From Gammaproteobacteria bacterium (GTDB lineage Bacteria > Pseudomonadota > Gammaproteobacteria > JASBUN01): DNA of 64,000 bases. Below, piece after piece: positions 27,543-56,427 of the stretch (positions are counted from its first letter, which is position 1; the number at the start of each line of letters is the position of its first letter). A model generated the notes under the pieces. That model was given only the letters and a program-made list of their open reading frames with translations, ran no database searches and was not told the origin of the DNA. Location: contig JASBUN010000046.1 of assembly GCA_030147845.1 (NCBI GenBank), forward strand, positions 64,430 through 128,429, given 5' to 3'. The position numbers and the translations under genes were made by a program.

Positions 27543-27576
27543 GTGGCCTCCTGAAATGACCTCCGCAATGTAAAGT

Positions 27577-29026: not shown

Positions 29027-29107
29027 AGGCTCTCCACAACAAAAATTTGACGTCCTTATTTTATTTCGCGATTTATATTTATCCAATTGTTTTTATTAAC
29101 TTTTATT

Positions 29108-31048
29108 TTATACCGGCGTATCCAACGCCAAAGACCCATGAGGCGACGGGTGACCGACGTCGGTCACCCGTAACGGTCGCGGCGCCAGCCCGGACAGCCG
29201 AACCTGCCACATCATTTGGTAGGCCGACTCAAGCGCGCGCACGAAGCGCTGGGGATCGAACAGCGGGCCGTGCTCACGTTCGATCACCAGCCGCTGACGC
29301 AGACTGGCCAAAACCTCGGGCTGGCGCGCCAGACGTAACGCCTGGGCGGCATAAGCGGCGCGGTCTTCGCTGATCAACTCGGTCAGTCCAAGGCAGCGCA
29401 ATAAACTGGCCGACACCCGCGAGGCAAATGTCGAGCCGGGACAGGTCAACACCGGAACGCCCGCGCGCAGGGAATCGCTGGCTGTGGTGTGCGCGTTGTA
29501 GTACCAGGTATCGAGAAACAGATCGGCCAAGCGATGACGAGCCAGATGCGCCGGCCGCATAACCCGTTCGGCAAATATCAGCCGCTCGGCGGCAACACCG
29601 TGGCGCACCGCTTGGCGTCGAAGATTGCGCTCGGCCTCCGGCGACGTACGCAGCAGCCAAAGCACACTACCCGGCACCTGACCGAGAATGCGCATCCAGA
29701 CCGCGAATAATTCCGGATCGATTTTGTACGTATTGTTGAAACAGCAGAATACAAAGCTGGACTCCGGCAGTCCCACCTGGGCGCGTGTCGGCGTTTGCGT
29801 GGCCGAAAAGTGCAGGTAATCGTTGACCTGGTAACTGTGTGGCAAATAGACCGGCTGTTCGGTGTACGCAGCCGCCAGTTCCGCCGGCAGTACGCACTCA
29901 TCGACGACGATGTAATCCATAAAATCTGCGCCCAACGTCCCAGGATAACCCAGATAGCTGACTTGAACCGGTGCCGGACGGCGGGCAAACACACCGGCGC
30001 GCATATTCCAGGTGTATCCCTTCAGATCGACCAGAATGTCGATGCCGTCGCTGGCCATACGCTCGGCAATGGCGTCTTCGGTCCAGCCGTCAACGTCGCA
30101 GAACTGATCGCAGTCCTGTTCGATCCGACGACGGTAGTCGCTGCCGTCGTCGCCTCCCCAGCTGTAGATGGAAACCTGGAAGCGGCTGCGATCGTGCAGC
30201 GCAAACAGACTCAGCATGAGCTGAGCGGTCGGGTGATCACGAAAGTCCGCCGAGGCGTAGCCAATGCGCAATCGTTGCCGGGCACCCGGCCGCGGATGCA
30301 CCGGCGCGCCACTCAGCGGTCTGCAGTGCGCAAGCGCATGGCGGGTATAATTTTCCGCGATACGCCGTTGCATTGCTGTATCGATCGGCAATGACAACGA
30401 CATGAACGGCGACATCGGCGTGAGGCGATCCTCGTCGAGCGCCGTTCGCGTTACTCGCAGCAGTTGCTGCAGTCGTGCCGGCCACTCATCCCACGCGCAC
30501 ACCGCCTGATCGAGCAAAACCAGATTCGAGAGTATATAGGGATCGTTTGGGTCGAGCTGACAGGCGCGTTCCAACCAGTGCCGCGCCTCGTCCAGCCGGT
30601 CGAGTTGTCGACAAACCAAACCGAGATCATTACAGCTCGCCGCCGATCCAGGATTCAGCTCGACGGCGCGCAGCAACGCTTCACGTGCATCGGGCAATTC
30701 CCCAGATTCGCATAGCGCATTACCGAGTTTATGGTATGCGTCATGCAGCGTTCCATCGAGCCGAATAGCCTCGCGAAGCAGCGCCGCCGCGGCGCGGTGA
30801 TTTCCCAAACGGAGGTGTTCGGTGGCATCCGCGAGGCGCGATTCCGCATCGCTACACACCATCGTCTGAGCAGCGCGCTGCTCGAAAAGGATCGCCAGCA
30901 GCTGGCGGGCATGCGATTGCAGCGGATCGACAAGAAGTATTTGTTCGTAGATGGCCTGCGCGGTCTCCAGATCGCCGTCACGATGCCTGGCGATGGCGCT
31001 GCGCAACATCACTTCCACCTGACGCCGCTGAATCCGTTCACTGACCAT
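29108..31048 (-). CDS. TPR-repeat protein with a C-terminal OGT-like (GT41) glycosyltransferase domain; a candidate flagellin O-glycosyltransferase.
   Basis: A 646-aa protein with N-terminal TPR repeats. Its C-terminal half (RIGYASADFRDHPTAQLM...LRPAPVQVSYLGYPGTLGADFMDYIVVD) closely parallels the catalytic region of eukaryotic O-GlcNAc transferase. Confidence 0.8.
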   Translation of the reverse strand: MVSERIQRRQVEVMLRSAIARHRDGDLETAQAIYEQILLVDPLQSHARQLLAILFEQRAAQTMVCSDAESRLADATEHLRLGNHRAAAALLREAIRLDGTLHDAYHKLGNALCESGELPDAREALLRAVELNPGSAASCNDLGLVCRQLDRLDEARHWLERACQLDPNDPYILSNLVLLDQAVCAWDEWPARLQQLLRVTRTALDEDRLTPMSPFMSLSLPIDTAMQRRIAENYTRHALAHCRPLSGAPVHPRPGARQRLRIGYASADFRDHPTAQLMLSLFALHDRSRFQVSIYSWGGDDGSDYRRRIEQDCDQFCDVDGWTEDAIAERMASDGIDILVDLKGYTWNMRAGVFARRPAPVQVSYLGYPGTLGADFMDYIVVDECVLPAELAAAYTEQPVYLPHSYQVNDYLHFSATQTPTRAQVGLPESSFVFCCFNNTYKIDPELFAVWMRILGQVPGSVLWLLRTSPEAERNLRRQAVRHGVAAERLIFAERVMRPAHLARHRLADLFLDTWYYNAHTTASDSLRAGVPVLTCPGSTFASRVSASLLRCLGLTELISEDRAAYAAQALRLARQPEVLASLRQRLVIEREHGPLFDPQRFVRALESAYQMMWQVRLSGLAPRPLRVTDVGHPSPHGSLALDTPV

Positions 31049-31061
31049 CGGCCCAATCCGT

Positions 31062-34000
31062 CTACTCGGGAATCACGATATGGGAAGCGGGCTTGCCCGC
31101 TTCCCAGAGCGCCCACATGCGCCGGTAGGCCGACTCCAGGTAACCCACGTAACGCGGTGTATCGAATAGAGGTTGTGTCATTCGGTTTTGCTGCAGGCGT
31201 TGACTCAACTGCAACAACCGCGCTTTGTCACTGGCAAGCGTCACCGCCAGATCTTCATACTGTTGCAGGCTGGCGGTGACCAGCTCCGGTAAACCGACCG
31301 CGTGCAGTAGACTGGCCGCTACGCGCGCGGCGAACGTTTGGCCAGGACAGGTAATCAACGGCAAGCCCGCCCATAGCGCGTCGCTGGCGGTAGTGTGCGC
31401 GTTGCAGTAGAGCGTGTCGAGCAACAGGTCAGCATGCGCGTGACGGGCCAAATGTTCCGGTTTAGGCAGGCGCGGCGCGAACACCAGCCGTTGTGGATCA
31501 ATACCCCGCCGTTCGGCTTCACGCGACAAGTTGAATTGAGCTTCTTCCGATGCTTTGAGCAGCCAAAGAACACTTCCGGGCACGCGCGCGAGGATTCGCA
31601 TCCAAGCGTCAAATATCGTCGGTTCGATTTTGTAGTTGTTGTTGAAGCAACAGAAAACAAACCCCGTTTCCGGCAATCCGCACGCCTGGCGGCTTGGCAC
31701 TGTCTGCGCAATGGCTTGCCTGTGGTCGTTAACCTGATACGAATGCGGCATATAGACCAATTGTTCACGGAAAAACTGCCTCGACTCCGGCGGCGTGACG
31801 TTGGCGTCGCTGATCATATAGTCCATGTATTCAGCGCCCAGCGAGCCGGGATAGCCAAGATAGTTGACCTGTATCGGGGCCGGGCGTAAGGCGAAGATCT
31901 CGGGACGTATGTCGCGCGTATAGCCCTTCAGGTCCACCAGTATATTGATACCGTCATCGGCCACTCGTTGCGCAGTGCGCGCGTAATGTTCATCACTAAT
32001 GTCAATAAAGTGTTCGGTATCCCGCTCGATACGTGTGCGATACTCGCTGCCATCGTCAGATCCGAAAGAATATGCAAAAATTTCGAATTCGTCACGGTCA
32101 TGCAGCCCGAACAAACTCAGCATGAGCTGCGCGGTGGCGTGCGTATAGAAATCCGATGATACGTAACCGATGCGTAAGCGGCCGCTACGCCGCGCACCCG
32201 CGGTAATTTTTATCGCCGGCTCGGTGATCGTCGGCCGAATCACGGTCTGTACATAATTCGCCGCGATGTCGCGCTGCAGGCTCGGCGAAATCGATAATGT
32301 TACCGCATAGAACGGCGTAATTGGGCTGCGCTGTTTTTGTTCGATGAATCGGGCCGTCCACTGCGCCAACTTATCCAGCAGTTGTTCATGCCCATCCCAA
32401 AAACAAATGTCCTGGTAGACTTGAATCAAATTGGCCAGCGCCTGTACGAAATCAGGCTTGACATTAAGCGCTTTGCGATACCAATTGACTGCCTCGCCGT
32501 AGCTGCCGAAATCACGGCATAGCGCACCGAGATTGCTATATACTTCGGCCCGCTCCGGCTGTAGTTCTATTGCTTTGAAATAGCACTCGGCGGCTTCGCG
32601 CGGGCGTGCCTGCGCCTTGCGCACGTTGCCCAGGTTGTTCCAGGCTTCCGCCAATTCGGGTCGCTTCGACAGGACGCGGTTATAACACTCGGCGGCCGCA
32701 TCCAGTCGATGGCGTGTCAAGTGGATATCACCCTGCTTTAAATCCGCCTCGACGTTGTTCGGATCGTAGCCGGATGAAATTTGGTAATGCTCCAGCGCGC
32801 GCTCGAGATCACCTGAGATCTGCAACAAGTGGCTCAAGCGACAATGCATGCGCGACTGCTGCGGTTCGAGTTGCACCGCACGTTCCAAGCAACGGGCTGC
32901 AGCTTCAATCTTACCCTGCTGTTCATAGATCAGACCCAAGTTGTAAAAGCTGTCGGCGTGATCTTGGCACAGCTTTTGGTGACTCTCATAATAACTCGCG
33001 GCGGCATCCAGCTCACCGCGGGCATGCAAATTAGCAGCCAGTAATACGTGCGCATCCGCGAAACAAGGATCGCAATCTATGGCCTGCTTGAAGCACACCG
33101 CCGCTGCCTGCACATCGCCCCGCTGCTGATAGACGCTACCCAATGATGAATGCAGTAGCGCAACGTTCGGTTTCAGCTCAATGGCGCGCTCGATGAGTTC
33201 GGCTGCACGCGCCAAGCGGCCGCCGCTATGTTCGATTACGCCTAACAGGTGCAACGCATCGACGTTGTCGGGCGTCAGATCAAGTACATCCGTATAAACT
33301 TTTTTAGCTAAATCCAACTCACCGGACGAATGCGCCGCTACCGCCTTCTGCAACAACTGCGGGATCCGATCCGGCGACGCGATCGTTTCGGACGTGATGG
33401 TCATTGTTTTTCTGTGCAGCGGCTGTGCTGCCCGCTGTCGCAATGCCGCGTCCACCTGCGCCAGCGTGCCGTCCCAATCACCTGAACTGATCTGGCGAAA
33501 TAAACGCGCCGATGCATACCACGGGCTGTCGTCGCGCCCCGCCAACCAGCGCCAGTCGGCGGCGGCATCGAGCAGCAGCCAGACCTCGCGCCCGAGTGTG
33601 CCGGCCAAATGCGCCACCGCCGTGTCGACAGTGACAATCAAGTCCAGGTTAAGCATCGCCGCCGCGGTATCGGCAAAGTCGTATAGCTGCGCATCAAGCG
33701 CCGTCACGCGCCCGGCACCAGCGGCGTGCGCCAGCTCCCGCGCCGGCGGCCCTTTCTGCAAACTATAAAACGCAGTACCCGGGATCTCGGCCAGCCGCAG
33801 CAGCAAGTGCAACGGGCAAGCGCGTCTGCGATTGTTCGGTTGCTCCGTGTTGCCCGACCAAACAATACCGATGCGTAAGCGCTCTTGATTGCCAATACGA
33901 TCGCGCCATTGCTGCACCAACTCGGCGGCGATCACGGGCGCTTGCGGCGCAGGAATCTGCTCAATGGCGCGACTGTAGAGCGCCGGTAGACTTAAAAGTG

Positions 34001-34988
34001 GAATATGCACGTCGAATTCTATTTTTCCGTCGTCGACATCCTCGCGCGCAACGATTTCGTCAGCGAACCCAGACCTTTGATACAAACGTGAAAGCGCCGC
34101 CGGGCATTCGAACAGTACCCGCCCGCCCGCTTGCAGCACGCGCGGCAAATAGCGCGCGAATTGCAGCGTGTCGCCGAAGCCCTGTTCGGACCAGACCAGG
34201 ATGCGGCGCCCGTTCAGCGCCGCACCGTCCCAGCGCGGAACAGAAAAACTGCGCTGCACGCGCTCGCCACACGCAAAGCCCCACTCATACTCCGGCCAGC
34301 CGCGTGCAAAATCGCCTAATTGCAGCCACAACAGTGAACGGTTCCAGTGCGCCTGCGGCAGTTGTGGCGACAAGCCCAAGGCGCGTTCATAGAATTCAAG
34401 CGCACCGTCAAATTGACCAAGCGCCTGCAACGCGTTGCCGACGTTGCTGTAGGTCGCCGCATGTCCCGGCCGTATCTCCAGCGCCTGCCGGTAGCAATCG
34501 ATGGCTCGACCCGGCTCACCGCGCTGTTTGACCACGTTACCTAAATTGACCAGAGCATCAAAGTAGCGCGGACGCAGACTGATCGCGCGCAACAGGTGGC
34601 TCTCGGCGTCCTCCAAGTGGCCGAGAGCACGTAGCGCAACGGCGTAGTTATTGTGCAACTCGGCGTTGCCCGACTGCATAGGCAACGCCATGCTATACAC
34701 CTCGGCCGCTGCACCCGCCTCGCCGTTGGCGAAGAAGGCGCTGCCGAGCAGTTGATACAAAGCGACCAAGCTCGGGTTTTGCTCCAAGCCGCGCTGGCAA
34801 TGCACGATCAGTTCCGGATAACGGTGCTGCGCGAGGAGCAGCTCACCGAGACGTATCAGTGTATCGGCATGGGCCGGTTGCGCTAGCAACAACGCGCGAT
34901 AGCGATGCTCGCTCTCTACCTCACCGCCCTCGCTCGCCCGGGCATGCGCGTTCAGCGGCAACACTCTCATTTTCCGCCCGCGGCGCAC
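31062..34988 (-). CDS. A 1308-aa multidomain protein: TPR, a GT9 (heptosyltransferase-like) domain, TPR, and an OGT-like GT41 domain.
   Basis: It carries the GT9 signature (DLIVTVDTAVAHLAGTLGREVWLL...W). Its C-terminal module is paralogous to the preceding gene (RIGYVSSDFYTHATAQLM...LRPAPIQVNYLGYPGSLGAEYMDYMISD). Confidence 0.8.
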   Translation of the reverse strand: MRRGRKMRVLPLNAHARASEGGEVESEHRYRALLLAQPAHADTLIRLGELLLAQHRYPELIVHCQRGLEQNPSLVALYQLLGSAFFANGEAGAAAEVYSMALPMQSGNAELHNNYAVALRALGHLEDAESHLLRAISLRPRYFDALVNLGNVVKQRGEPGRAIDCYRQALEIRPGHAATYSNVGNALQALGQFDGALEFYERALGLSPQLPQAHWNRSLLWLQLGDFARGWPEYEWGFACGERVQRSFSVPRWDGAALNGRRILVWSEQGFGDTLQFARYLPRVLQAGGRVLFECPAALSRLYQRSGFADEIVAREDVDDGKIEFDVHIPLLSLPALYSRAIEQIPAPQAPVIAAELVQQWRDRIGNQERLRIGIVWSGNTEQPNNRRRACPLHLLLRLAEIPGTAFYSLQKGPPARELAHAAGAGRVTALDAQLYDFADTAAAMLNLDLIVTVDTAVAHLAGTLGREVWLLLDAAADWRWLAGRDDSPWYASARLFRQISSGDWDGTLAQVDAALRQRAAQPLHRKTMTITSETIASPDRIPQLLQKAVAAHSSGELDLAKKVYTDVLDLTPDNVDALHLLGVIEHSGGRLARAAELIERAIELKPNVALLHSSLGSVYQQRGDVQAAAVCFKQAIDCDPCFADAHVLLAANLHARGELDAAASYYESHQKLCQDHADSFYNLGLIYEQQGKIEAAARCLERAVQLEPQQSRMHCRLSHLLQISGDLERALEHYQISSGYDPNNVEADLKQGDIHLTRHRLDAAAECYNRVLSKRPELAEAWNNLGNVRKAQARPREAAECYFKAIELQPERAEVYSNLGALCRDFGSYGEAVNWYRKALNVKPDFVQALANLIQVYQDICFWDGHEQLLDKLAQWTARFIEQKQRSPITPFYAVTLSISPSLQRDIAANYVQTVIRPTITEPAIKITAGARRSGRLRIGYVSSDFYTHATAQLMLSLFGLHDRDEFEIFAYSFGSDDGSEYRTRIERDTEHFIDISDEHYARTAQRVADDGINILVDLKGYTRDIRPEIFALRPAPIQVNYLGYPGSLGAEYMDYMISDANVTPPESRQFFREQLVYMPHSYQVNDHRQAIAQTVPSRQACGLPETGFVFCCFNNNYKIEPTIFDAWMRILARVPGSVLWLLKASEEAQFNLSREAERRGIDPQRLVFAPRLPKPEHLARHAHADLLLDTLYCNAHTTASDALWAGLPLITCPGQTFAARVAASLLHAVGLPELVTASLQQYEDLAVTLASDKARLLQLSQRLQQNRMTQPLFDTPRYVGYLESAYRRMWALWEAGKPASHIVIPE

Positions 34989-37900
34989 GCGCCGGCAGCC
35001 GCGCCTTCCGTGCCGAGACCCTGCAACCAGTCATCAAAATGATCGTCAAGCATCCAATGCTCATGTGTCCATGCGCGTAGTGCATCACCTTCCCGGCGAC
35101 TGGCGTCAAGATCATTGACGCGTTCCCGTATGGCTTTAATCCACGCCGCCGACGTGTTCGCGACCCGCGTGACCGGCGCATCGCGGTAAGGCTCAATATC
35201 CGTGCAAACTACCGGCCAGCCGAGCGCGCCGTACTCAAGCAGTTTAAGGTTACTTTTGCACTGATTGAAACGATTGTGCGCCAGCGGCGCAACGGCAAGA
35301 TCCAGATCGAGCGCCGCCAAGGTGTTCGGATATTGCTCAAACACAACCGGGTTGTGCACCTCCACACCCAGCGAAAGCCACTCTTCGAAACACAGGCCGA
35401 AAAATACCCACTGGACTTCACTGGCCGTTTTCTTCACGACCTCGTGAATGATGTCTAAATCACCGCTGTGCTGCTGCGCGCCGGCCCAACCGACCCGCGG
35501 CTTGTCGCCGCGACCGCGACGCGATTTCAGCGCCTTCCAGATCGAGCCGTCCAGGTAGTTCGGCACAACCACAATATCATCGCTCCACCCGCGGTACGCC
35601 TGCGCAAGTGCCTCAGTGCTAACAAGCAGCCGGTGACAGGCGCTCATGGCACGGCGCAGACGCTTCTTTACGTCTGGATACACACTCGTGCTGAAACTGT
35701 TATAGCTCGGCAAATGATCGATCAAGTCGTCCTGACCAAACACCAGAAACACGTCTTTGTTGAACCGCCGGTAACGATCCAATGCTTCCAACTGCACGTC
35801 GTGCAATGTGTTGTGGGCCAGCAGAATGTCCGGTGCTTCGCGCGCCAGTTCGGACACACTCGGCACTCGTACACGCTCGATGCATTCCGGAAGCAGATGG
35901 GTCGTCGCCCGCCGCGCGCGCCGTAGCGCTTGCATGGGAATATCCAATCGATGCTGACGCGAGCCCGATGACCCAAGGCTCATGCCTAAGATGCGTGGAC
36001 CATCCGCGCCGTCGTCCCACTGTGCGCACATTTCACTATCCACCGAGTAATCGGTACGTATTAGATTGAGATTGCGGTTGTAGGCCGGATCGCGCGCCAA
36101 TTTCGGCAACCAGCGCTCAAGCATGACTGCAACTTCATTTTTCGCCTGCTGCCATTTTTTCGCATCCTGGTAGTGCCCGTCTTTAAGGCTTGCCGAGCCA
36201 TGATGCACAGCGGTGGAATACGGTGTCCAGACGACGCGAAACCCGTGTTCGCGCACCTTCAAGCACAGATCGACGTCGTTATACATCACCGCCAGCTGGT
36301 CCTCGTCCATACCGCCGACTTGTTCGTAAATCGATTTACGGATCAAAAGACAAGCGCCGGTCAGCGCCGATACGTCGCGCGGACTCTGCGCGATGTTCAT
36401 GGGACCAGCGATTGACATCGGAGCGCCAAAAAACGGATGTTCGGCAACCCCATTTTGGCCCATGCCTAAAACTACGCCGGCATGCTGAATACGCTGATCT
36501 GGAAATACCAACCGCGGGCCAACGGCGCCGACATCCGGTCGCTGCGCCTGACTCATTAAACGGTCCAACCAATTCGGCTGGACAATCACGGTATCGTTAT
36601 TAAGTAATAACAGGTAGTCACCGCATGCTTGCGACGCGGCGACATTGTTGATTGCCGAATAATTGAAAGGATGATCGTAGCGAACCACCGACACCCGTTT
36701 GTGGCGCTGAGCAACCTCGTCCAGATAGCGCAAAGTCCGTTGGTCATCCGTCTGATTGTCGACGACAATCACTTCAAAGTTCTTATAGCCGGTTTTATGC
36801 AGCAGACTCTCCAGACACGGCTCGAGCACGTCCCGGCGGTTGCGCGTCGGCACGATGATCGACACCAACGGTTGAGCGCTGTGCTGATAGTCGATCAGAA
36901 AGCTGCCCGTAGCCAAACCCGGTTCGACCTTGGCGTCGACGCCGGCGCGCGTCAAATGCCCTTCCACGAGGCTCATACCCTGTTCTGACGTCACTTCGCG
37001 TCGTCGCGCGTTAACCTCTAACTGATGTACAAGGACGTCGGCAATATGACCTACGGCTTCGCCGCCAAAAGTCTCGACGACACGCAAACACAAATCGTGA
37101 TTGACCAGCGACCCGAGGCTGACGACACCACCGATGGCAGCTAAAACGGTGCCTTTGACCAGGCAGAAACTGCCTACATAGGCGCAACTTCGCAGCAGTT
37201 CAAGATTGAGGTCCGGCTTGAAACGGGGGTGTGAGCGCGCGCCATCGACGTCGACCGTGTCTTCGTCGGTGTAGACAAATCCAATCGAGGGATTACGTTC
37301 AGCGAATTTCGCGCAGGCGAGCAATGCGCCGGCATCGAGTTGATCGCCGGGTTCCAACAGTGTCACCCAATCCGCGGCGGTTGTCGCGACTGCGGCATCG
37401 ATCGCCGCCGCGATTTCCCGCTCAGCGTGTATCCATTCAAGCATGTCGAGTTCTTCGAACATGGGATCAGGACAGGCCATGGCGGAAACCACCGTCAGGC
37501 CCCAGCCGCCGTAAAGCTGCGCAGACATGCTGTCAATCGTCTTCGCAAGATGCTCAATCGAATCCTCATCGACCACAATGATCACGTGTATGGTTGGCTT
37601 GTGCACCAAACCATCGATCGTTTCCTGTGCGTGTGCTCGCTCGGCGTCGGCACGATGACCACGATGGCGTATCCACTCTGAGTAGGGTTCGACTGTCACC
37701 TTATCAGACGACTCATGCTCGACCTCAACTTCATCTGCATGCGGTATCGGTGCCGGGCGCACGGCGCGTTGCGCGGCGATTGCAGCCAGCTCTGACAAAA
37801 AATCGGCACGTTTTGCGTCGCTCTGATATTTCGCGGCGGCCTGGCAAGCCGCTTCGCCAATTGACGCGCGCAGGGCGGGGTCGGACGCCAAGCGATACAT

Positions 37901-40900
37901 CCACTTCGCCGCTTGCTCAATATCGGCATCAGCCCATACCGCGTCGGCGCCGACGCGCTCACGGCTATAAGCGTTAATTGATGCCTGCACAGGAACTAAG
38001 CGATAATTGACCAGACAGGCGTTGGTGTGGTCCATGAAGCTCATGTTGCCGGACCAGCCGGTCGCGATCACCGGCTTGCCTAACGCCATCGCCTCCATCA
38101 TCCCCAAACCGAAGCCCTCGGCCCGGTGCAGCGACACGAACACATCGCAGCTGGCGTACAACGACAAAACGTCGCTGTAGCTCAACGTATCCGTGATTAA
38201 ATGGACGTTGGCACGGACGCCGCAATAGTCGCGCAAATCCTTAACCCATGCACGCCGTTCGCCGGCGCCGGATGCGCCATTCAGCTTAATGACCAAATGC
38301 GCCGACTGATCGTCGGCGAAAGCGTGCTGGAAAGCCGCCAGCGTCGCGGCCGGGTTTTTGCGTTCCGGATCGCTGTTAAGATCAAAGCTGGAAATGAAAA
38401 TCGTCGCCTTGTCCGGCAATCCGAAGCGATCTCGCTGTGGAGACGACGTGCCCTGCTCGGGCAGCGGGTGTTTAGCGCTCAACACCGGTACGCCGGACAC
38501 CGAAAACGCTAATGCATGACGGATGAAGTCCGATTGCGCAATGAGCACATCCATCGACTGTAGTGCATCCGACCAGCCTCGCGGCAACACGGCCAATTCC
38601 CAAACGCACCAGCAGGCATTAAAACGTGCCGGATTTTGGATAATTTCCGGATATTTGCTAATGAAGCCGGACAAATCCGCGAGTGGAAATACGAATAGAT
38701 TAATTGCATGAGGAAGATCTGTGACCGCATCGACACAGAACCTCTCGAAGCACCGGTCGAACTTTCCGCGCCCCGCACCAGGATCGACGTCATATACCGC
38801 AACCGAACAGCCTTGATCCAAGAGCACCTGCACCACGCTACGCGCCGTAACGCCGACGCCGAGATTACCACTGACGTAGCCAATGACATTGACACCGATG
38901 TTGAGTTTTTGCTTACGCGGGACATCCATATCCGTGACCGTTACCACGGCATCATCGACTTGCATCGGTGCGCGTTGGATCGCCGGTTTAACGTCGGCGC
39001 AGCGCAAACGAACGCGATCCCCGGCCGCGAACATCTGTTCGGCCCGACTACGCTCGCCGATCTGATTCAACGCTTCGCCCAATAGCCAGTATAGGTCCTC
39101 ACAATCCGGATGTAGCTCAACTGCCTTTTCAAGATAAGCGGCGCCATCCTGGGCCGCGTTGGCGTCAATGGTCGCGAGTGCCAAGCCGAGCGTTGCCGGG
39201 CAGCTGTCAGGCATGCGCAGTGACTCGCCGCCATAGAGATGGTCGTTCACCAATCGGTGGACGTAGTAATCCTTCCAAAAATGTGTTTGCTGGACGCCGG
39301 AAAGCTCAGCGACAGCCGGCAAACAGGCGGCCAGCCAGTCTTGGTCCTTGCGCGCGTACGGCGTAACCGATTTTCCGTCTGCGCGCAGCAGACGCATCTT
39401 TGCGAACGTCCGATCGACGTTACAAAACCGGTAGCCCGCGAGCGCTGCCCGCACCCAAAAATCCAAATCGACCGCATACGGCAAATCCTCACGAAACCGC
39501 CCCACCGCGCGTATCAGTTCGGCCGTGAAAAACATCGCGGGCTGAAAAATGTGCAACGGGCGATGCCAACGCAACAGGCGCTGCAGGTCCATTGTCGGCG
39601 GAGGCACGCGAATGCCGATAGGATGGTCGTTCTCCCCAAGAAGGACCACATTGCCGTAGATGAGGTGTACTCCGGCGCCAGGATCAAGCGCTTCCGCGGC
39701 TGTCACAAGTGCGCCTTCGAGGTAAAAGTCATCGGCATTCAACCAACCGATGATGTCACCCGACGCCATCTCCAGCGCTTTATTCAGGGCATCCGGCTCG
39801 CCCCGGTCAGGCTCTGAAATCCAATGTACATGCGGATAATCCCGCAAAATATCCAGCGTCTGATCGTCTGAACCGCCGTCGACGACGATATGCTCGAAGT
39901 TGTCGTAACCTTGCGCGAGTACGCTGTCAATGCATTGTCGAATATAGGCCGCGCAATTCAGCGCCGGCGTAATGATCGATATTTTTGCGCCGCACCCCTG
40001 CACGCCACGTCTACGGGTTGATTCTACCGCCTCACGCATATTCACTCCGTCCGTCTGCCTCGGTGCTGAGCGAGCGTCATGCGACTGCACCCCGATTTTC
40101 CTCGTGCTAGCACCATCGGCGCCAAGGCATTCAACATTCGTATGTTGCCGTGCCGAGCGCACACCCCGGCGCGTTTGCACAGCGTCGAGCATCTGCTGCC
40201 ATCTGCCGGCCTGCACATCAGCGCAAAAATTCTGTCGTATGGTCTCACGCGCTGCTGAGCCCAGCGTCTTGCAGCGCTCGGGATCGCGCCACAGTTCAAC
40301 CACGAAGCGCGCAAACTCTTGCGCGTTGCGCGCGATTAGACCGTTTTTGCCGTGTTCGATCGGCGATTGATCGGCAACGTTCCGCAGTGCAATCACCGGT
40401 ACGCCGTAGGCCATGGATTCGAGAATTTTCACCTGCATTCCGGTACCGCCGATCACCGGACATATGGCGAAGCGGCTTCTCGTATACACGTCACTCAGTT
40501 CGGCTACGTAGCCCGCCAGCTCGACACCGGCCACCGGCACAATCTTGTTGCATGCGCCACCGATCACTTTCAAAACAAACTCCGGGCAGGCCGACCGTAC
40601 GGTCGGCAGCACATTCGCGGCAAAATAGGCGTAGCCTTGAATATTCAAACAGTAATCGGACACCACCAACACAGGCGCACTGTCGTAGCTATTGTCGACG
40701 TTCACAATCTCATAGGTAATCGGGATTTCTTCGACCAATGTTTGCGATGTATGATTTTGAATCAGTTTCGCGTCCAACGATGAAAAGGCCACCGTCACGT
40801 CGTAGTTGTCATAAATCGCATATTCTTCCGCGCCCGCTAACAACGTGCTTAAGTCGATACCCGAATAGAAGTTTTCGGAAAGCGCCGCGGGATTGACTGC

Positions 40901-41395
40901 AGCCGGCTCCACCGGCACCTTGAGATACGGCGCGATACGCGCCTGCATGTGCTCGTTTAATGTCAGTGAGTCGTGACTAACGATGACGCGAATGGCGCTC
41001 TTGTACTCGTCCCCGAGCGCCAATCTTCCCCACCACGCATAATGCACGACAACCAGGTCCGGTTGGATTTTCTGGAACAGGTCACGAAAAGCGTCAAGAA
41101 GCCATGGCGGATTGAAGCGGCTCCAACTGTTTGGCGCCTTACCCCCTTGCCGCGCCGTGTAGAGCGCATCTAACCAGTCACCACCGTAGTAATATACCTG
41201 TGCGCCGAATTCGGTGTTCAGATAATCAACCGCTTCTTTGCTCCACGGAATATCGGTCGAAACAGAAGTCCCGAAAACATGCAGCTCATAGCCGATACTC
41301 GCCAACGCCCGAAGTATCGCCAGTTCACTTCGATGTGTGCCGGTTTGTGGCGGATACGGACAGTAGGGATCAAATACCAGCGCTTTCAATTTCAT
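34967..41395 (-). CDS. A 2142-aa cytoplasmic protein made of about six glycosyltransferase modules (GT4, GT2, GT4, GT2-like, GT2, GT4-like).
   Basis: Repeated GT-A signatures are present (ISIITPALNCAAYI...VVDGGSDD...NADD; VSIIVPTRNRRDVL...VVDNQTDD...NNDT). GT-B C-terminal signatures are also present (HRAEGFGLGMMEAMALGKPVIAT). There are no transmembrane segments. Confidence 0.8.
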   Translation of the reverse strand: MKLKALVFDPYCPYPPQTGTHRSELAILRALASIGYELHVFGTSVSTDIPWSKEAVDYLNTEFGAQVYYYGGDWLDALYTARQGGKAPNSWSRFNPPWLLDAFRDLFQKIQPDLVVVHYAWWGRLALGDEYKSAIRVIVSHDSLTLNEHMQARIAPYLKVPVEPAAVNPAALSENFYSGIDLSTLLAGAEEYAIYDNYDVTVAFSSLDAKLIQNHTSQTLVEEIPITYEIVNVDNSYDSAPVLVVSDYCLNIQGYAYFAANVLPTVRSACPEFVLKVIGGACNKIVPVAGVELAGYVAELSDVYTRSRFAICPVIGGTGMQVKILESMAYGVPVIALRNVADQSPIEHGKNGLIARNAQEFARFVVELWRDPERCKTLGSAARETIRQNFCADVQAGRWQQMLDAVQTRRGVRSARQHTNVECLGADGASTRKIGVQSHDARSAPRQTDGVNMREAVESTRRRGVQGCGAKISIITPALNCAAYIRQCIDSVLAQGYDNFEHIVVDGGSDDQTLDILRDYPHVHWISEPDRGEPDALNKALEMASGDIIGWLNADDFYLEGALVTAAEALDPGAGVHLIYGNVVLLGENDHPIGIRVPPPTMDLQRLLRWHRPLHIFQPAMFFTAELIRAVGRFREDLPYAVDLDFWVRAALAGYRFCNVDRTFAKMRLLRADGKSVTPYARKDQDWLAACLPAVAELSGVQQTHFWKDYYVHRLVNDHLYGGESLRMPDSCPATLGLALATIDANAAQDGAAYLEKAVELHPDCEDLYWLLGEALNQIGERSRAEQMFAAGDRVRLRCADVKPAIQRAPMQVDDAVVTVTDMDVPRKQKLNIGVNVIGYVSGNLGVGVTARSVVQVLLDQGCSVAVYDVDPGAGRGKFDRCFERFCVDAVTDLPHAINLFVFPLADLSGFISKYPEIIQNPARFNACWCVWELAVLPRGWSDALQSMDVLIAQSDFIRHALAFSVSGVPVLSAKHPLPEQGTSSPQRDRFGLPDKATIFISSFDLNSDPERKNPAATLAAFQHAFADDQSAHLVIKLNGASGAGERRAWVKDLRDYCGVRANVHLITDTLSYSDVLSLYASCDVFVSLHRAEGFGLGMMEAMALGKPVIATGWSGNMSFMDHTNACLVNYRLVPVQASINAYSRERVGADAVWADADIEQAAKWMYRLASDPALRASIGEAACQAAAKYQSDAKRADFLSELAAIAAQRAVRPAPIPHADEVEVEHESSDKVTVEPYSEWIRHRGHRADAERAHAQETIDGLVHKPTIHVIIVVDEDSIEHLAKTIDSMSAQLYGGWGLTVVSAMACPDPMFEELDMLEWIHAEREIAAAIDAAVATTAADWVTLLEPGDQLDAGALLACAKFAERNPSIGFVYTDEDTVDVDGARSHPRFKPDLNLELLRSCAYVGSFCLVKGTVLAAIGGVVSLGSLVNHDLCLRVVETFGGEAVGHIADVLVHQLEVNARRREVTSEQGMSLVEGHLTRAGVDAKVEPGLATGSFLIDYQHSAQPLVSIIVPTRNRRDVLEPCLESLLHKTGYKNFEVIVVDNQTDDQRTLRYLDEVAQRHKRVSVVRYDHPFNYSAINNVAASQACGDYLLLLNNDTVIVQPNWLDRLMSQAQRPDVGAVGPRLVFPDQRIQHAGVVLGMGQNGVAEHPFFGAPMSIAGPMNIAQSPRDVSALTGACLLIRKSIYEQVGGMDEDQLAVMYNDVDLCLKVREHGFRVVWTPYSTAVHHGSASLKDGHYQDAKKWQQAKNEVAVMLERWLPKLARDPAYNRNLNLIRTDYSVDSEMCAQWDDGADGPRILGMSLGSSGSRQHRLDIPMQALRRARRATTHLLPECIERVRVPSVSELAREAPDILLAHNTLHDVQLEALDRYRRFNKDVFLVFGQDDLIDHLPSYNSFSTSVYPDVKKRLRRAMSACHRLLVSTEALAQAYRGWSDDIVVVPNYLDGSIWKALKSRRGRGDKPRVGWAGAQQHSGDLDIIHEVVKKTASEVQWVFFGLCFEEWLSLGVEVHNPVVFEQYPNTLAALDLDLAVAPLAHNRFNQCKSNLKLLEYGALGWPVVCTDIEPYRDAPVTRVANTSAAWIKAIRERVNDLDASRREGDALRAWTHEHWMLDDHFDDWLQGLGTEGAAAGACAAGGK

Positions 41396-41437
41396 TTATC
41401 CGTCCGGTGGTCGACGTTACGTTTTCACACGTCTGCA

Positions 41438-44017
41438 TTAGCGGCCAATGATCTTGCGCGAAGCATTACCGAAACGGTCGTTCGCCCAGGCGTCATTCGA
41501 CTCAAGTCCCAAGGCCCATTCAAAGGCCTTGGCCGATTCCAACTGACGCGCGTCCATGCGCAAATGTTCGCCGAGCACACCCATGACGTTGGCGCAGTCG
41601 GGCATATCGTTACCCAATACCGGGTCAATGATCCCGCCTCGGACTAAACCCAATTCCTTTGCCGCCAGCATAAATCCGGTCATCGCTCGGGGATCGACAC
41701 CGACTTCCACGGCCGCATCGGCGTAGTAGGCAGGACTGCCGAAGTTGCGGAACCGAAACTCGTAGTAATCTTTCCAGAAGTGAATTTGTTCGCCGTCGCT
41801 CAGCGCCTCGAGATGAGGGCTACAGATTTGCAGCCACTCTTGGGCCTTCACCGCGTACGGCGTCTCGGTCTTACCACCCTCGCGATAAATCATCGCCTTG
41901 GCGAACACGCGGTCCAGGTAGTGAAACGCGTAGCCTTTGGCGGCAATACGGAACCAATAGTCATAGTCAACGCCATAATTCAAATCTTCCCGGAAGGGAC
42001 CAACATCGCGCATCAGTTCGGTCGAAAAGAAAATTGATGGCTGGAATAGATTGAGACGAAACCAACGGGTCAGGGTGACCACATTCAGGGGTGCGTACGG
42101 GATGACCCAGTTGGTCGGCACTTCGCTGTCGTCGATAAACAATGCTTTGCCATAAAACAGATGCGCATCGGGATTGTCCGCCGCAGCGTTCGAAATCGCG
42201 TCGAACGCGCCTTTGATGTATCGGTCGTCAGCGTTCAACCAACCAATGATGTCCCCCGAGACCATACGCAACGCCTTGTTGAGGGCTTGCGCTTCACCGT
42301 CATCGGGCTCAGAAACCCAGTTTACGTGTGGATAACGGCGAAGGACTTCCGCGGTGCCGTCAGTAGATGCGCCATCGACAACGATATGTTCGAAATTCTC
42401 ATAGCCTTGCGCCATTACACTCTCGATGCACTTGCTGAGTAATGCGGCGCAATTGAACGTAGGCGTGACAATGCTAATTTTCGGCTTTGCAGCGCGTCCC
42501 GATCGATGAACTGCGCGCAGGCTCGGCGTCGCCGCCCCACGGGCCCGCACGGTGGCTTGCAAATGCTGATATGCGTCCTCATCTTCAGCCCTCAGCCGCA
42601 CGGCTTCTTCCAGATCGCACTCGGACTGCTGCAGATATCCCAGTTCTCGCATCAGGATGCCACGATGGAGAAATACGCTTCCGGCGTCGTAACCGAATCG
42701 CATTGCAAGATCAAACAGTTGCCGCGCTTTAATTTTCTCGCCTCGAGCGGCCAAAGCCCGGGCATGTAGAAAATGCCATTCGCCATCTTCAACCAGATGT
42801 TCACCGCAATCGCCCAACAAATCCGCCGCGCGCTGCCATTGCTGCGCCGCTACAGCGCGCTGCGCCAACGCCTTCACGCAGTTCTGCCACCATTGACGCA
42901 CTTCGGTCGAGTCGCGGCGACGCTCCAAAGCGCGCTTCAGATCCACCTGCGCAGCGTCCAAATGCCCGGCCTGCAATAGTCGCTTACCGCGATTGAAGCT
43001 CACCAGGAACTCGTCCATTCCCTCGATCGTGCCATCTTCAAGCAGTTGTTTCACGTGCTCGCGCAAGCGCGCCAGACGATCATCATCCGGGCTCTGATCG
43101 GCTTGCATGTCCAGCGCCGCAACACAGTCCTCGACACGTCCGAGATGCAGCAACACCCAGGCCCGCCAATAGTTCAATTGGTCGTGCGGCTGACCGGATC
43201 GCACGGCTGACTCGAGCAACGTCAGCGCATATTCGAGCGTCAGGTTATTGGACTGGCTCGCATCGGCGGCCTGCTCGACGGCCATGGCCACTACCTCAAG
43301 TACGTCGTCTACGCTGTAAGCCGGCAACTTCGGCACACGCGGGGCCTGTTCGCCGGCTCGCGTCAGCACTAGATGAAAACTCTCCGACAGCTGTAGCGGG
43401 CCACGCACCCAATCGATGTCAAAATAGTCGGCAAGCTTTTGATGGTGCCGGAATCCGTGCGCGGCGAACAACTCGAGCCACCATTCCTTTCCATGTACCG
43501 TCTGATGGTAAATAACGCCGCCGACGGCATCTTCGAAATCCGCCACGCTCATGATCCAGATGCCGCCTGGCTTTAGGTGTCGACGCACATTACTGCACAC
43601 GGCCTCCAGCTGCGGCTCAGCCACGTGTTCCATTAGCTCCCACGAGGTGACTGCGTCGAACCGCAAGAGGCTGTCGGCCGACGATTTGCCATGCGCGGGC
43701 ACAAGTGAAAATTCTTGCGTCACATCGCAGGTGAATAGATGCTCCGGTATCGCAGGCCACGCCCCGCGCGCGCTGCGCTGGCAGTAATCGCTGCCTTCCA
43801 AACCGATCGCCAAGTGGCCATCGTCCAGACAATCTTTGACGAAAGCTCCGCCCGAGCAGCCCAGGTCCAGAACGCTAGCGCGCGCCGCGTTGAGGAGTTT
43901 GTATAGCTTCTTGTTAAACAGGGGATTGCGGCTGTTATCCTGTTTCGCGCCGTGCGGTGCGATATGATCCGGAGAGTCGGTAGCGACGGGCTTATTGGTC
44001 TGACAGACAATTTTCAT
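41438..44017 (-). CDS. An 859-aa fusion of a SAM-dependent methyltransferase, a TPR/helical linker and a GT2 glycosyltransferase.
   Basis: The N-terminus has methyltransferase motif I (VLDLGCSGGAFV) and a post-I acidic region. A GT2 module (KISIVTPTFNCAALL...VVDGASTDG...NADDRY) is paralogous to the one in the 2142-aa gene. Confidence 0.75.
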   Translation of the reverse strand: MKIVCQTNKPVATDSPDHIAPHGAKQDNSRNPLFNKKLYKLLNAARASVLDLGCSGGAFVKDCLDDGHLAIGLEGSDYCQRSARGAWPAIPEHLFTCDVTQEFSLVPAHGKSSADSLLRFDAVTSWELMEHVAEPQLEAVCSNVRRHLKPGGIWIMSVADFEDAVGGVIYHQTVHGKEWWLELFAAHGFRHHQKLADYFDIDWVRGPLQLSESFHLVLTRAGEQAPRVPKLPAYSVDDVLEVVAMAVEQAADASQSNNLTLEYALTLLESAVRSGQPHDQLNYWRAWVLLHLGRVEDCVAALDMQADQSPDDDRLARLREHVKQLLEDGTIEGMDEFLVSFNRGKRLLQAGHLDAAQVDLKRALERRRDSTEVRQWWQNCVKALAQRAVAAQQWQRAADLLGDCGEHLVEDGEWHFLHARALAARGEKIKARQLFDLAMRFGYDAGSVFLHRGILMRELGYLQQSECDLEEAVRLRAEDEDAYQHLQATVRARGAATPSLRAVHRSGRAAKPKISIVTPTFNCAALLSKCIESVMAQGYENFEHIVVDGASTDGTAEVLRRYPHVNWVSEPDDGEAQALNKALRMVSGDIIGWLNADDRYIKGAFDAISNAAADNPDAHLFYGKALFIDDSEVPTNWVIPYAPLNVVTLTRWFRLNLFQPSIFFSTELMRDVGPFREDLNYGVDYDYWFRIAAKGYAFHYLDRVFAKAMIYREGGKTETPYAVKAQEWLQICSPHLEALSDGEQIHFWKDYYEFRFRNFGSPAYYADAAVEVGVDPRAMTGFMLAAKELGLVRGGIIDPVLGNDMPDCANVMGVLGEHLRMDARQLESAKAFEWALGLESNDAWANDRFGNASRKIIGR

Positions 44018-44227
44018 CGGTTTGGTATCCCCGGCCGCTATGGCCGCTAGAAGAATCGACGTGCATCTTGGCCTGTTGGGTACAACGCCTCACTCATATC
44101 GCAACGCGCATTCTGACAGTAAAGAACGCCCCGTCTGCAGCACAGTACAGACGGAACTTGAGTGCACTCATCCATCCGGACGCATGTTGAAACGCCGCCC
44201 TCGATCGGCCACGCCTTTACCGTCGAT

Positions 44228-44242
44228 GCAATTCATGTGCCA
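44228..44242 (-). promoter_or_regulatory. Sigma54 promoter TGGCAC-atgaa-TTGCA upstream of the four-gene glycosyltransferase operon.
   Basis: A perfect -24/-12 consensus about 210 nt upstream of the ATG at 44017. An AT-rich tract with an IHF-like TATCATaatgTTA lies just upstream, at about 44255-44285. Confidence 0.6.
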
Positions 44243-44520
44243 CGGCGAAAACTTATAACATTATGATAATTAATATTTTTTTATTTCTATGAGGTGTCGG
44301 GAAATTGTCACTAAACACGGTTGATCGCCGATGTGGCGCGCGCGGAGACGATATCGTGGCGCCGTATTAGCGCCATGACTAGCACACGCACAGCGCGGCG
44401 ACCCGCAAACGTGCCGCATGCAGCACGCCCTCGCGCCACGCCAAGGCGGCCGGAAAGCCGCGCTCTAATAGCCGCGTCGTGCTCAGGTGGGTAAAAGGAC
44501 GATCGATACTGAATTGGCCA

Positions 44521-46026
44521 TTAGGCCGATTGTTGCAGACGCTCGACGCGATCCAGCGCTTGGCGCACGGTCGCCACGGTGTCGGCCTGTCCGTCCATGG
44601 TTTCCAGCACCGCAATCACGTTGCGTAGCGTTGCCGGATGTTCGGCGTTCACCTCCATGCTACGCTGTAGATATCCCAGTGCAGCCGCCGGATCACCACG
44701 TGTCCAGGCGACCGTACCGAGATTATTCAAAGCTTCCGCATGTCCAGACTCGATATTCAACACCTGCTGAAACGCGTTGGTGGCGCCATCAATATCGCCG
44801 CGCTGAAATAGCAGTTCACCTTCGGCGTTAAGCGCATCCGCCGACGACGAATCAGCGCCGACACTAGGGGCCGGACGCGCGGGCGTGAACGTGTCGCGTA
44901 AATCCGACAAGCGCTCGCGGATCTCTTGGTCGTCGGGGAAATCGGCGAGGTAGCTGGTGTACAAAGTCTCGGCATCAGCATGGCGATCACTGGACAGCAA
45001 TACCTGACCCGCATTCAGAACCAGATTGCGGTTGTCCGGCGCATGCTCCATGCCGCGGGCGAAACATTGCAAGGCTTCACCTCCCTTACCAAGCGCCCAG
45101 AGGCATACACCCAGGTTGTCAAGCGTCTGTGGGTCGGTCGGGGCCAGTTGCAACGCTTGTTGAAAGCTGCGCAGCGCGGCAACCAAATCGCCCGCATTAT
45201 AAAGCTGTTCTCCGACCGCGTTGAGTTGCGTCAGTTCCGTCGTGTCGTCGTAGGCAGTCGTCCTTTGGCCGCTTTGCGCGCGCCATTCGGGGTACAGGCG
45301 ATCCATCAACGGTGAGCACCAGCGCTCGAAGGCGGCCCACTCCGGCTCGCCCCACGACACCGCAATATCGGCCTGGCCGGCGGCAGGCTCATCAAGATCA
45401 AACATCACTTGCGGTCCGTGCTTGAGACCGAGCCAGTCCATCAGCGCGCCGATATCCCGGCCGAGATCCTCCAGCCGTACAAGGCGAAATTGCGCATTGC
45501 GGGCATGTGTTCGTAGATCCGATTCGATCAACTGATTGATGTAGCCCCAATACCAGCACCGCTTTTCAAAGGCGGTCATGTTTGCCCACGCCTGTGCATC
45601 GACATCACCGCAAAAATCGCCGCGTACTTGACCTTGTATCCAGCGCTGTTCAACCGCCGACATACATCCATCAGCCCGCTCATGGTTGCCGTACCAACCT
45701 TTTAGCGATGCGGAGTTCACGAAATCGATAGCGTTGCGAACCAACCAAAGGTAGTGCGCCTCGGGGAACGCGCGCGACACCGCAGGAATAACCCACGATA
45801 AGGCGCGACTGGATTCGCCATACGGCTTATGATTTTGCGTGGCTGAGCGGGTGAGTCGCAGCATTCTTTCGATCTGTTCTGCGCTCGCGTTACCGTATCG
45901 AAATGCCGACGCCTCCTCGATCAGCATCGGTTCGGGTTCATGCAAGCACACGCAACGGCTCTGCTCGAGCAAGACATTCGCGACCGATAACATGCCGCAT
46001 TGCCCGGTACCGAAAATAAAAAACAT
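44521..46026 (-). CDS. A 501-aa protein with an N-terminal P-loop sulfotransferase-like domain (degenerate PAPS-binding motifs) and C-terminal TPR repeats.
   Basis: It has a MFFIFGTGQCGML 5'-PSB-like loop and a YLWLVRNAIDFVNS 3'-PB-like motif. The C-terminal 200 aa are TPR-like (ALNNLGTVAW, LDNLGVCLWALG). Confidence 0.5.
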   Translation of the reverse strand: MFFIFGTGQCGMLSVANVLLEQSRCVCLHEPEPMLIEEASAFRYGNASAEQIERMLRLTRSATQNHKPYGESSRALSWVIPAVSRAFPEAHYLWLVRNAIDFVNSASLKGWYGNHERADGCMSAVEQRWIQGQVRGDFCGDVDAQAWANMTAFEKRCWYWGYINQLIESDLRTHARNAQFRLVRLEDLGRDIGALMDWLGLKHGPQVMFDLDEPAAGQADIAVSWGEPEWAAFERWCSPLMDRLYPEWRAQSGQRTTAYDDTTELTQLNAVGEQLYNAGDLVAALRSFQQALQLAPTDPQTLDNLGVCLWALGKGGEALQCFARGMEHAPDNRNLVLNAGQVLLSSDRHADAETLYTSYLADFPDDQEIRERLSDLRDTFTPARPAPSVGADSSSADALNAEGELLFQRGDIDGATNAFQQVLNIESGHAEALNNLGTVAWTRGDPAAALGYLQRSMEVNAEHPATLRNVIAVLETMDGQADTVATVRQALDRVERLQQSA

Positions 46027-56390: not shown

Positions 56391-56427
56391 GACTGACTCC
56401 GGCTATACGGTTCTTGACAGAACTAAA

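Follow-up and report, generated by a model that had tools for sequence, protein, structure and literature searches.

Genes and setting of the island

We analyzed a 64,000-nucleotide (nt) stretch of a gammaproteobacterial genome (assembly GCA_030147845.1, contig JASBUN010000046.1, positions 64,430 to 128,429), hereafter referred to as the window, in which five large genes occupy the interval between flgL and fliC. An earlier note, made from the letters of the sequence, had placed five minus-strand genes at 29108-46026 and proposed that they modify flagellin, and the open reading frames (ORFs) g501, g859, g2142, g1308 and g646 indeed lie at exactly those positions (Table 1). The genes are separated by 13 to 42 nt or overlap, except for a gap of 503 nt between g501 and g859. 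Because an ATG at position 34970 forms an ATGA overlap with the stop codon of g2142, and because two other assemblies carry gene calls of 1302 amino acids (aa), g1308 probably starts there and encodes 1302 aa.

The island is embedded in a single 60-kb Pseudomonas-type flagellar and chemotaxis cluster. The order within the window is cheZ, fliA, fleN, flhF ... fliI, fliK ... fleR, fleS, fleQ, a PilZ gene, fliT, fliS, fliD, flaG, fliC, the island, flgL, flgK, flgJ ... cheR, cheV, flgA, flgN and a YcgR-like PilZ gene, so that the island is flanked by the stretch from fliC to fleQ on one side and by flgL, flgK and flgJ on the other. Scans with Rfam and for tRNA genes found nothing within the island. 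A recent foreign origin of the island was also considered; since its GC content (0.55-0.61) is the same as that of the flanks, composition gives this idea no support.

Domains were called with Pfam and NCBIfam on whole proteins and in segment-wise scans. Together the five proteins carry ten glycosyltransferase (GT) domains of four families, and each has at least one tetratricopeptide repeat (TPR) element. None of them contains a membrane helix-type hydrophobic stretch or a signal-like N-terminus (maximum Kyte-Doolittle 19-residue mean of 1.84). Neither the island nor the window ORFs scanned gave a Pfam or NCBIfam match to a transporter, flippase, polymerase, initiating phosphoglycosyltransferase or nucleotide-sugar enzyme, and NeuB, CMP-sugar synthetase (CMP, cytidine monophosphate) and MAF_flag10 likewise had no match there. 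ABC transporters were absent from the same set of ORFs; export genes could lie elsewhere in the genome. The description of the island as lacking membrane proteins, a flippase, an ABC transporter and sugar-nucleotide genes thus held.

Table 1. Genes and promoter-type elements of the island and its surroundings (positions in the window)
Feature	Position	Strand	Remarks
flgL	46071-46967	-	upstream boundary of the island; TIGR02550, E = 1.6e-92; same position in a second assembly (L090) and in L086 (variant B)
g501	44521-46026	-	501 aa; start 44 bp past the flgL stop
AT-rich element AGAAATAAAAAAATATTAATTATCATAATGTTATAAGTTTTCG	~44243-44290	-	directly upstream of the g859 sigma-54 motif
sigma-54 (RpoN) type motif	44227-44242	-	TGGCAC-N5-TTGCA, exact consensus, 210 bp upstream of the g859 start
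g859	41438-44017	-	859 aa
g2142	34967-41395	-	2142 aa
g1308	31062-34988	-	1308 aa as annotated ORF
g646	29108-31048	-	646 aa; directly upstream of fliC
sigma-28 (FliA) type motif	29000-29027	-	TAAAGTTT-N12-GCCGTTAC, upstream of fliC
fliC	28044-28886	-	280-aa flagellin, presumed acceptor; Pfam Flagellin_N and Flagellin_C
exact sigma-54 site	27576-27591	-	upstream of fliD; conserved in L090 and L007 (variant C)
exact sigma-54 site	14304-14319	-	upstream of fliK
exact sigma-54 site	56427-56442	-	upstream of the operon beginning at ~56.4 kb

The island is conserved in a second assembly and is under purifying selection

Looking for a similar architecture next to fliC elsewhere, as the earlier note had advised, yielded an island of identical gene order in a second assembly (L090) and two diverged variants in the same slot, described below. 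In L090 the order is flgL, genes of 501, 859, 2142, 1302 and 654 aa, and fliC, with every ORF intact. The five island proteins are 80-92% identical in aa between the two assemblies, and their ratios of nonsynonymous to synonymous substitution rates (dN/dS) range from 0.11 (g859) to 0.19 (g646), compared with 0.02-0.06 for flgK, flgL, fliC, fliD and fliS. The modules of g2142, two weakly recognizable ones included, gave 0.09-0.24, while the linker at residues 401-465 is relaxed (0.46). By these ratios, the five island ORFs are real genes under purifying selection.

Synonymous divergence (dS) from L090 climbed steadily across positions 25597-48911: it was 0.19-0.22 for flgK and flgL, about 0.3 for g501, g859 and g2142, 0.55 for g1308, 0.69 for g646, 0.78 for fliC and 0.5-0.7 for fliD and fliS. 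Such a rise would fit breakpoints of recombination, or a segment near fliC that has been exchanged on its own.

Two OGT-like proteins, one of which carries a GT9-like module

The g646 protein consists of a short TPR region (residues ~10-180) and an OGT-like GT41 catalytic domain (183-635; PF13844, E = 2.5e-110). In g1308, a first TPR block (~40-225) is followed by a GT9-like module (225-525, nt 33414-34316), a second TPR block (~540-855) and a GT41 domain (861-1300; PF13844, E = 2.8e-119). With 369.8 and 399.3 bits, respectively, against a gathering cutoff of 25, the two matches bear out the prediction of two TPR-GT41 proteins. Both catalytic lobes aligned with human OGT (E = 2.8e-127 for g646 and 6e-108 for g1308) and with the Xanthomonas enzyme XcOGT (E = 3.9e-88 and 1e-91), and the metazoan intervening domain is missing from both proteins, as it is from XcOGT. 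The Lys that binds uridine diphosphate (UDP) and the HTT motif, which we take to be K842 in FNQLYK and H920-T921-T922 in human OGT numbering, are kept in g646 (FNNTYKIDP and NAHTT) and in g1308 (FNNNYK and NAHTT). The former also keeps the DHPT histidine; the equivalent of H498 is not kept. Between g646 and the C-terminal half of g1308, identity is 44%. On these alignments both GT41 domains are members of the OGT/SPINDLY family. An assignment as N-glycosyltransferases (HMW1C/NGT) was rejected, as the NCBIfam NGT match (E = 1.2e-4) reached 20.9 bits against a cutoff of 1000 and the similarity to OGT is very strong. In a scan of genome contigs g1308 had no close relative; the best match, from an uncultured gammaproteobacterial metagenome-assembled genome (MAG), was 47% identical.

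The middle part of g1308 had been read as a GT9 domain, and this part of the prediction stood in a reduced form. In the window copy the match to PF01075 is below threshold (E = 0.007, 16.2 bits, gathering cutoff 22); among 11 homologous modules, however, six matched PF01075 at E <= 0.01, the best at E = 3e-6. The module is well conserved, with the motifs EQGxGDT, VDTSVAHLAGALG and DWRWL..R.DSPWY. A PDB sequence search with this segment returned nothing meaningful, and a profile of the 11 modules reached WaaC in the PDB at E~0.9 only. A single-sequence AlphaFold2 (AF2) model of the module reached a predicted local distance difference test (pLDDT) score of 38.7 and was unusable. Given the score below threshold and the distance to WaaC, we call the module GT9-like, which is a remote assignment rather than demonstrated membership of GT9. 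The same module occurs in three or four tandem copies in an Alcaligenaceae MAG (L011, 3574-13568) and a Chlorobiaceae MAG (L044, 8588-13150), and no flagellin gene was found within the stretch of sequence analyzed at these two loci.

g2142 and g859 combine several enzyme modules

Scanned whole and in segments with Pfam, g2142 resolved into GT4 (residues 1-400), GT2 (470-700), TPR (~735-796), GT4 (820-1200), weak GT2-like (~1270-1470), GT2 (1509-1751) and weak GT-B/GT4-like (1800-2110) modules. Of the six GT modules, four are clear and two are weak; the total agrees with the approximately six GT4/GT2 modules expected. Among 5.8 billion sequences, the only full-length relative was a 91%-identical ortholog (P0001), and all others cover at most 57% of the protein.

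In g859, Pfam confirmed the anticipated fusion of a methyltransferase, TPRs and a GT2 domain: an S-adenosylmethionine-dependent methyltransferase (40-190) is followed by a TPR-like helical region (~260-480) and GT2 (512-740). Residues 505-832 of g859 are 45% identical to residues 463-789 of g2142.

The sulfotransferase-fold protein g501 has an altered cofactor loop

The prediction for g501, a sulfotransferase-like domain plus TPRs, drew a weak Pfam match and was settled at the level of the fold. The N-domain (residues 1-250, nt 45277-46026) matched Sulfotransfer_3 at E = 0.009, under the gathering score, and precedes a TPR domain (~260-495). PF13469 is present in four of the five homologs closest to it, and a PDB sequence search with the sulfotransferase-like segment found nothing meaningful. 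An AF2 model of the N-domain, built on the homolog alignment, reached a pLDDT of 76, and all of its top 48 Foldseek matches in the PDB were sulfotransferases (E down to 9e-6; template modeling score, TM, 0.4-0.6), among them tyrosylprotein, heparan-sulfate 3-O and bacterial sulfotransferases. The modeled structure thereby confirmed the sulfotransferase fold. With 3708 cluster representatives at E <= 1e-3 in a HMMER scan, of which many belong to fusion proteins 1000-2700 aa long, the N-domain represents a sizeable, uncharacterised family. One member, P0173 (991 aa), unites in a single protein a g501-type N-domain, GT2, another sulfotransferase-type domain with a PRSGAG loop, and TPRs at the C-terminus, and shows that this family is often built into multi-enzyme fusions.

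The loop that binds the 5'-phosphosulfate of 3'-phosphoadenosine 5'-phosphosulfate (PAPS) has the reference motif G-x-x-(R/K)-S-G-(T/S). In g501 and its 88%-identical L090 ortholog this loop reads GTGQCGM and departs from the motif, whereas all 35 relatives examined (5 aligned and 30 further) have GR(S/A/C)G(S/T) within an N-terminus of the form MFF..xxGR(S/A/C)G(S/T); two residues that every one of them keeps are thus lost in g501. The 3'-phosphate-binding residues R97 and S105, invariant in the family alignment, are kept, and dN/dS against L090 is 0.17 in both halves of the gene. The altered loop makes sulfation by g501 in the window lineage doubtful, and the protein may be catalytically dead; the earlier suggestion of a possibly sulfated glycan therefore finds no footing here. 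With such a loop, g501 probably serves as an adaptor without catalysis, or else its activity is altered, while its counterparts in two sister variants of the island look competent.

These properties bear on the possibility that part of the island is not enzymatic and that one or more TPR proteins, chiefly g501 and possibly one of the GT41 paralogs, serve mainly as a regulator, chaperone or scaffold that acts on flagellin or on the expression of flagellar genes. A domain whose PAPS loop is altered in both assemblies and which yet stays under purifying selection would fit such a role, and the Listeria protein GmaR is reported to be an O-GlcNAc transferase with TPRs that doubles as an anti-repressor. 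The catalytic motifs of the GT41, GT2 and GT4 domains, however, look intact. We regard this explanation as very improbable, and it would complement the glycosylation of flagellin rather than replace it.

Sister variants share a conserved frame around separately encoded modules

Two variants of the island, termed B and C, occupy the same flgL-fliC slot in related uncultured gammaproteobacteria and have diverged in gene content. Variant B is a single 33-kb contig covered by L086 and L091, with a fliC 75% identical to that of the window. Its order is flgL, a sulfotransferase-like-TPR gene whose GRCGT loop is intact, genes for a methyltransferase, an aminotransferase and an acetyltransferase, a GT of 2359 aa, two proteins of TPR-methyltransferase type (one with a TPR-GT9-like region), two TPR-GT41 genes and fliC, so that the TPR-GT9-like half and the TPR-GT41 half are on separate genes. 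Variant C (L007, MAG MFD05684.bin.1.125; fliC 81% identical) encodes a TPR protein, an epimerase, a GT4-GT2-TPR protein (815 aa), a TPR protein with a canonical GMHRSGTS sulfotransferase loop in its N-domain, an 878-aa protein of GT2x-GT2-GT-B type that shares 54% identity with the C-terminal half of g2142, and a TPR-GT9-like-TPR-GT41 protein (1362 aa), followed by fliC. Common to the variants are GT41 beside fliC, the TPR-GT9-like module, a GT2x-GT2-GT-B core of ~900 aa and a sulfotransferase-type TPR gene.

Modules joined in the window recur as separate genes in these and other relatives. Residues 1231-2142 of g2142 are 49-54% identical to the 878-aa protein of variant C and to the C-terminus of the 2359-aa GT of variant B. 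The GT2 part of g859 shares 61-62% identity with GT2 genes that stand alone ahead of a giant GT in two further loci (L002 and L005), and in L005 a separate methyltransferase-TPR gene stands in front of the stand-alone GT2. The giant proteins of the window are thus fusions of these modules. L005 is a FliW/CsrA-type locus with the order methyltransferase-TPR, GT2, giant GT (38% identical), GT2-TPR, GT4, GT2-TPR, flagellin, flaG ... fliD, fliS, in which the cassette of methyltransferase-TPR, GT2 and giant GT is placed 4 kb upstream of the flagellin gene, whose product has 274 aa. In addition, three betaproteobacterial MAGs encode a TPR-GT41 giant within ~2 kb of a fliC homologue.

Upstream of the giant-GT relatives in L005 (570-9991) and in L002/L003, we noted a gene set resembling a nucleotide-heptose pathway, comprising a GHMP kinase, a HAD/GmhB-like phosphatase, a SIS isomerase, a nucleotidyltransferase, epimerases and a C-methyltransferase. 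Its place beside a flagellin gene in L005 is a hint of flagellin glycans of the heptose type and of a part played by GT9-like modules.

The neighboring flagellin and flagellar-type promoter motifs

A Ser/Thr-rich segment had been pointed out in the short flagellin, and residues 140-200 of FliC are indeed 39% Ser/Thr, against 21% in the whole protein. The flagellins beside the related islands, of 274-280 aa, have the same kind of Ser/Thr-rich central segment.

The evidence on regulation consists of consensus motifs and their conservation. Allowing at most one mismatch, the sigma-54 motif occurs 10 times in the window, against 3.15 expected matches, and all four exact motifs are intergenic and upstream of minus-strand flagellar operons, that of g859 included. 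The g859 site reads TGGCAT-N5-TTGCA in L090, and in variant B an exact site stands 104 bp ahead of the giant GT gene. The AT-rich element next to the g859 site is nearly identical in L090, whereas the remaining intergenic region has diverged, and it could be a binding site for integration host factor (IHF) or an activator. The sigma-28 motif of fliC is the sole match without a mismatch in the window, and the same element precedes fliC in L090, L007 and L005. The regulatory genes fleQ, fleS, fleR and fliA are all encoded in the window.

From this layout, g501 would probably be read through from flgKL, and g859, g2142, g1308 and g646 would form one operon with its own sigma-54 promoter within the FleQ/FleSR hierarchy. 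An operon driven by sigma-54 would have its enzymes present before the sigma-28-driven fliC is switched on, and we infer that the island enzymes are made together with the middle flagellar genes and flagellin last.

Scans for generic sigma-70 promoters and for intrinsic terminators stayed at chance level. A hairpin with a 12-bp stem and a T-rich tail (44128-44157, minus strand) lies in the leader between the sigma-54 motif and the g859 start; terminator counts in the region are at chance. Just beyond the flagellar cluster, a 232-aa GT2 gene overlaps a 231-aa DUF2064 gene (61277-62663, minus strand), with tRNA-Ala and tRNA-Arg (62748-62950) and a C-terminal fragment of RelA/SpoT as neighbors.

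Flagellin is the likely substrate of the island

Collectively, we consider it likely that the island carries out cytoplasmic O-glycosylation of flagellin, before its export, by soluble TPR-tagged transferases. What we propose for the substrate, the order of steps, the identity of the sugars and the length of the chain builds on the observed gene content, domain families, conservation and selection, synteny and promoter motifs; in particular, the count of GT domains would suggest that the glycan is an oligomer. The claim that the substrate is a cytoplasmic protein, flagellin, is thus kept as the most likely one on the strength of synteny, the distant flagellin-adjacent relatives and the promoters; it does not extend to GT41-TPR proteins in general.

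Several observations speak against this interpretation. The organism is known solely from metagenome-type assemblies, and ten GT domains are a lot for a flagellin of 280 aa. The initiators known to date (FgtA, CD0240 and GmaR) belong to GT2, and GT9 is classically a family of the lipopolysaccharide (LPS) core. The GT41-TPR family gave more than 7500 matches at E <= 1e-60, and among 78 related genome loci a flagellin gene was present within 10 kb in only 4. Many of these loci come from Nostoc and Chlorobiaceae, which to our knowledge are without flagella. On this distribution, GT41-TPR proteins mostly lack a linkage to flagellin and hence are not specific to it. Among the relatives of other island proteins, a stand-alone relative of the g501 N-domain (P0051) lies inside a Wzm/Wzt ABC-transporter cluster with NeuB, and a giant-GT relative (P0008, locus L006) belongs to a large cluster for sugar biosynthesis and has no flagellin gene closer than 10 kb.

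The size and scatter of the GT41-TPR family would suit enzymes with other or additional protein substrates, such as FliD, FlgK, FlgL, pilins or a broader OGT-like set of cytoplasmic proteins, the adjacency to fliC then reflecting co-regulation. The two GT41 paralogs, at 44% identity, could have different acceptors, and a cyanobacterial GT41 enzyme (Ogt) is reported to be required for the glycosylation of a pilin (PMC9306852). A GT41 gene nevertheless stands directly upstream of fliC in three island variants, the flagellins beside all related islands have the short Ser/Thr-rich architecture in common, and the docking of TPRs on flagellin has a precedent in FlmG, discussed below. We therefore hold such other substrates to be unlikely as the main explanation.

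The GT9-like module, from what would be a heptosyltransferase family, and the genomic company of P0051 and P0008 could instead point to a polysaccharide pathway (LPS core, O-antigen or exopolysaccharide) with its lipid-carrier initiation and export genes elsewhere in the genome. Against it, the search of the island and the scanned window ORFs turned up no initiating transferase, flippase, polymerase or ABC transporter, and the five proteins are soluble and all have TPRs. Moreover, the genes sit in the slot of flagellin islands behind flagellar-type promoter motifs, and the synteny with fliC holds across variants and phyla. A polysaccharide product hence seems improbable to us, and glycosylation of flagellin remains the explanation that we prefer.

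Relation to known systems

The earlier note had called the system undescribed, which the literature does not sustain: islands in this slot, an island of GTs alone (PMC3927599), GT41 in flagellin islands (PMC4875605) and TPR docking on flagellin (PMC7591256) have all been published, so the kind of system is already known. In Pseudomonas, the islands of P. syringae (fgt1/fgt2), PAO1 (PA1088-PA1091 with FgtA) and the PAK a-type share the flgL-to-fliD context, with GT genes upstream of fliC, and likewise combine large, soluble, multidomain transferases with a short flagellin (~280 aa) glycosylated on central serines (PMC3927599; PMC11833859). P. syringae has a transferase-only island (fgt1, fgt2) beside fliC and viosamine genes elsewhere, and its 282-aa flagellin is glycosylated on six central serines (PMC3927599); FgtA of PAO1 (PA1091) is a fusion of GT2 with a phosphotransferase (PMC11833859). 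By their published descriptions, however, these islands have no GT41, GT9-like or sulfotransferase-fold domains, nor a TPR on every protein.

In Enterobacteriaceae, GT41/SPINDLY proteins (COG3914), usually fused to methyltransferase domains, were found in 14-15 island types (PMC4875605). That study (De Maayer & Cowan 2016) was a genomic survey without biochemistry, in which each island had one to three GTs of a single GT family. These islands resemble the present one in having GT41 inside a flagellin island with methyltransferase domains; here, in contrast, there are ten GT domains of four families, and the methyltransferase is fused to GT2, not to GT41.

The architecture of the GT41 proteins also sets them beside the soluble FlmG class, with N-terminal TPRs and a C-terminal GT-B domain. 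FlmG binds flagellins through its TPR domain and not through its GT-B domain, and glycosylation precedes export (PMC7591256); in Caulobacter and Brevundimonas the enzymes are cytoplasmic and expressed before flagellin secretion (PMC7591256; bioRxiv 2022.03.25.485807). FlmG differs in transferring pseudaminic or legionaminic acid alongside the genes for their synthesis, none of which occurs in the window ORFs scanned. To OGT (human; Xanthomonas XcOGT, PDB 2JLB/2VSN) the likeness extends over both lobes, the UDP-binding Lys and HTT, and with XcOGT also over the missing intervening domain; the differences are the H498 equivalent, which is not conserved in g646, and the fusion of one window copy to a GT9-like module between two TPR blocks.

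In the literature searched, there was no description of a TPR on every enzyme, a GT9-like module, a recurring sulfotransferase-TPR gene or fusions on such a scale, nor a paper linking sulfotransferases to flagellin glycosylation or reporting a sulfated bacterial flagellin glycan. The type of system is known; what is new here is the degree of fusion, together with TPRs on all enzymes, a GT9-like module and a sulfotransferase-TPR gene that recurs.

Proposed pathway and implications

In the pathway that we propose, the TPR arrays would dock the enzymes on unexported flagellin in the cytoplasm, by analogy with FlmG. One or both GT41 domains would use a UDP-sugar to attach the first residue of the glycan, most likely an N-acetylhexosamine, to Ser or Thr residues at ~140-200; GT41 is the most likely initiator because the family acts directly on Ser/Thr of proteins. 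The GT9-like module and the seven GT2/GT4 modules would then extend this sugar to an oligosaccharide from housekeeping nucleotide sugars, the methyltransferase domain would methylate the glycan, and the glycosylated flagellin would leave through the flagellar export apparatus.

A more speculative version, which we put forward tentatively and consider more doubtful than not by a wide measure, sees a protein-templated assembly line. All enzymes would be docked through their TPRs on flagellin or on each other; GT41 would start the glycan, the GT9-like module would contribute a sugar of the heptose type taken from the pool of LPS precursors, and a long methylated chain would be made by the GT2/GT4 modules. 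The chain would be sulfated in the sister lineages with an intact PAPS loop, and g501 would be a pseudoenzyme scaffold here. Such an assembly line, if real, would assign a defined physiological substrate to the OGT homologs of bacteria and to TPR-GT9-like proteins. Should the sister variants sulfate their flagellin glycan, this would be without precedent in the literature searched.

The findings extend the basic picture of flagellin glycosylation and do not change it. They illustrate how the surface chemistry of flagella diversifies between related bacteria, in which a conserved frame is kept while other modules are fused, split or swapped. The TPR on every enzyme suggests a general route by which successive reactions of glycan assembly could be directed to one protein with no need of a lipid carrier, and this is of interest for glycoengineering. 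Bacterial OGT-like GT41 proteins are extremely common, and we know of almost none with a known substrate. The context of fliC names a candidate acceptor for them, and the question of their substrate thereby becomes testable in a simple system.

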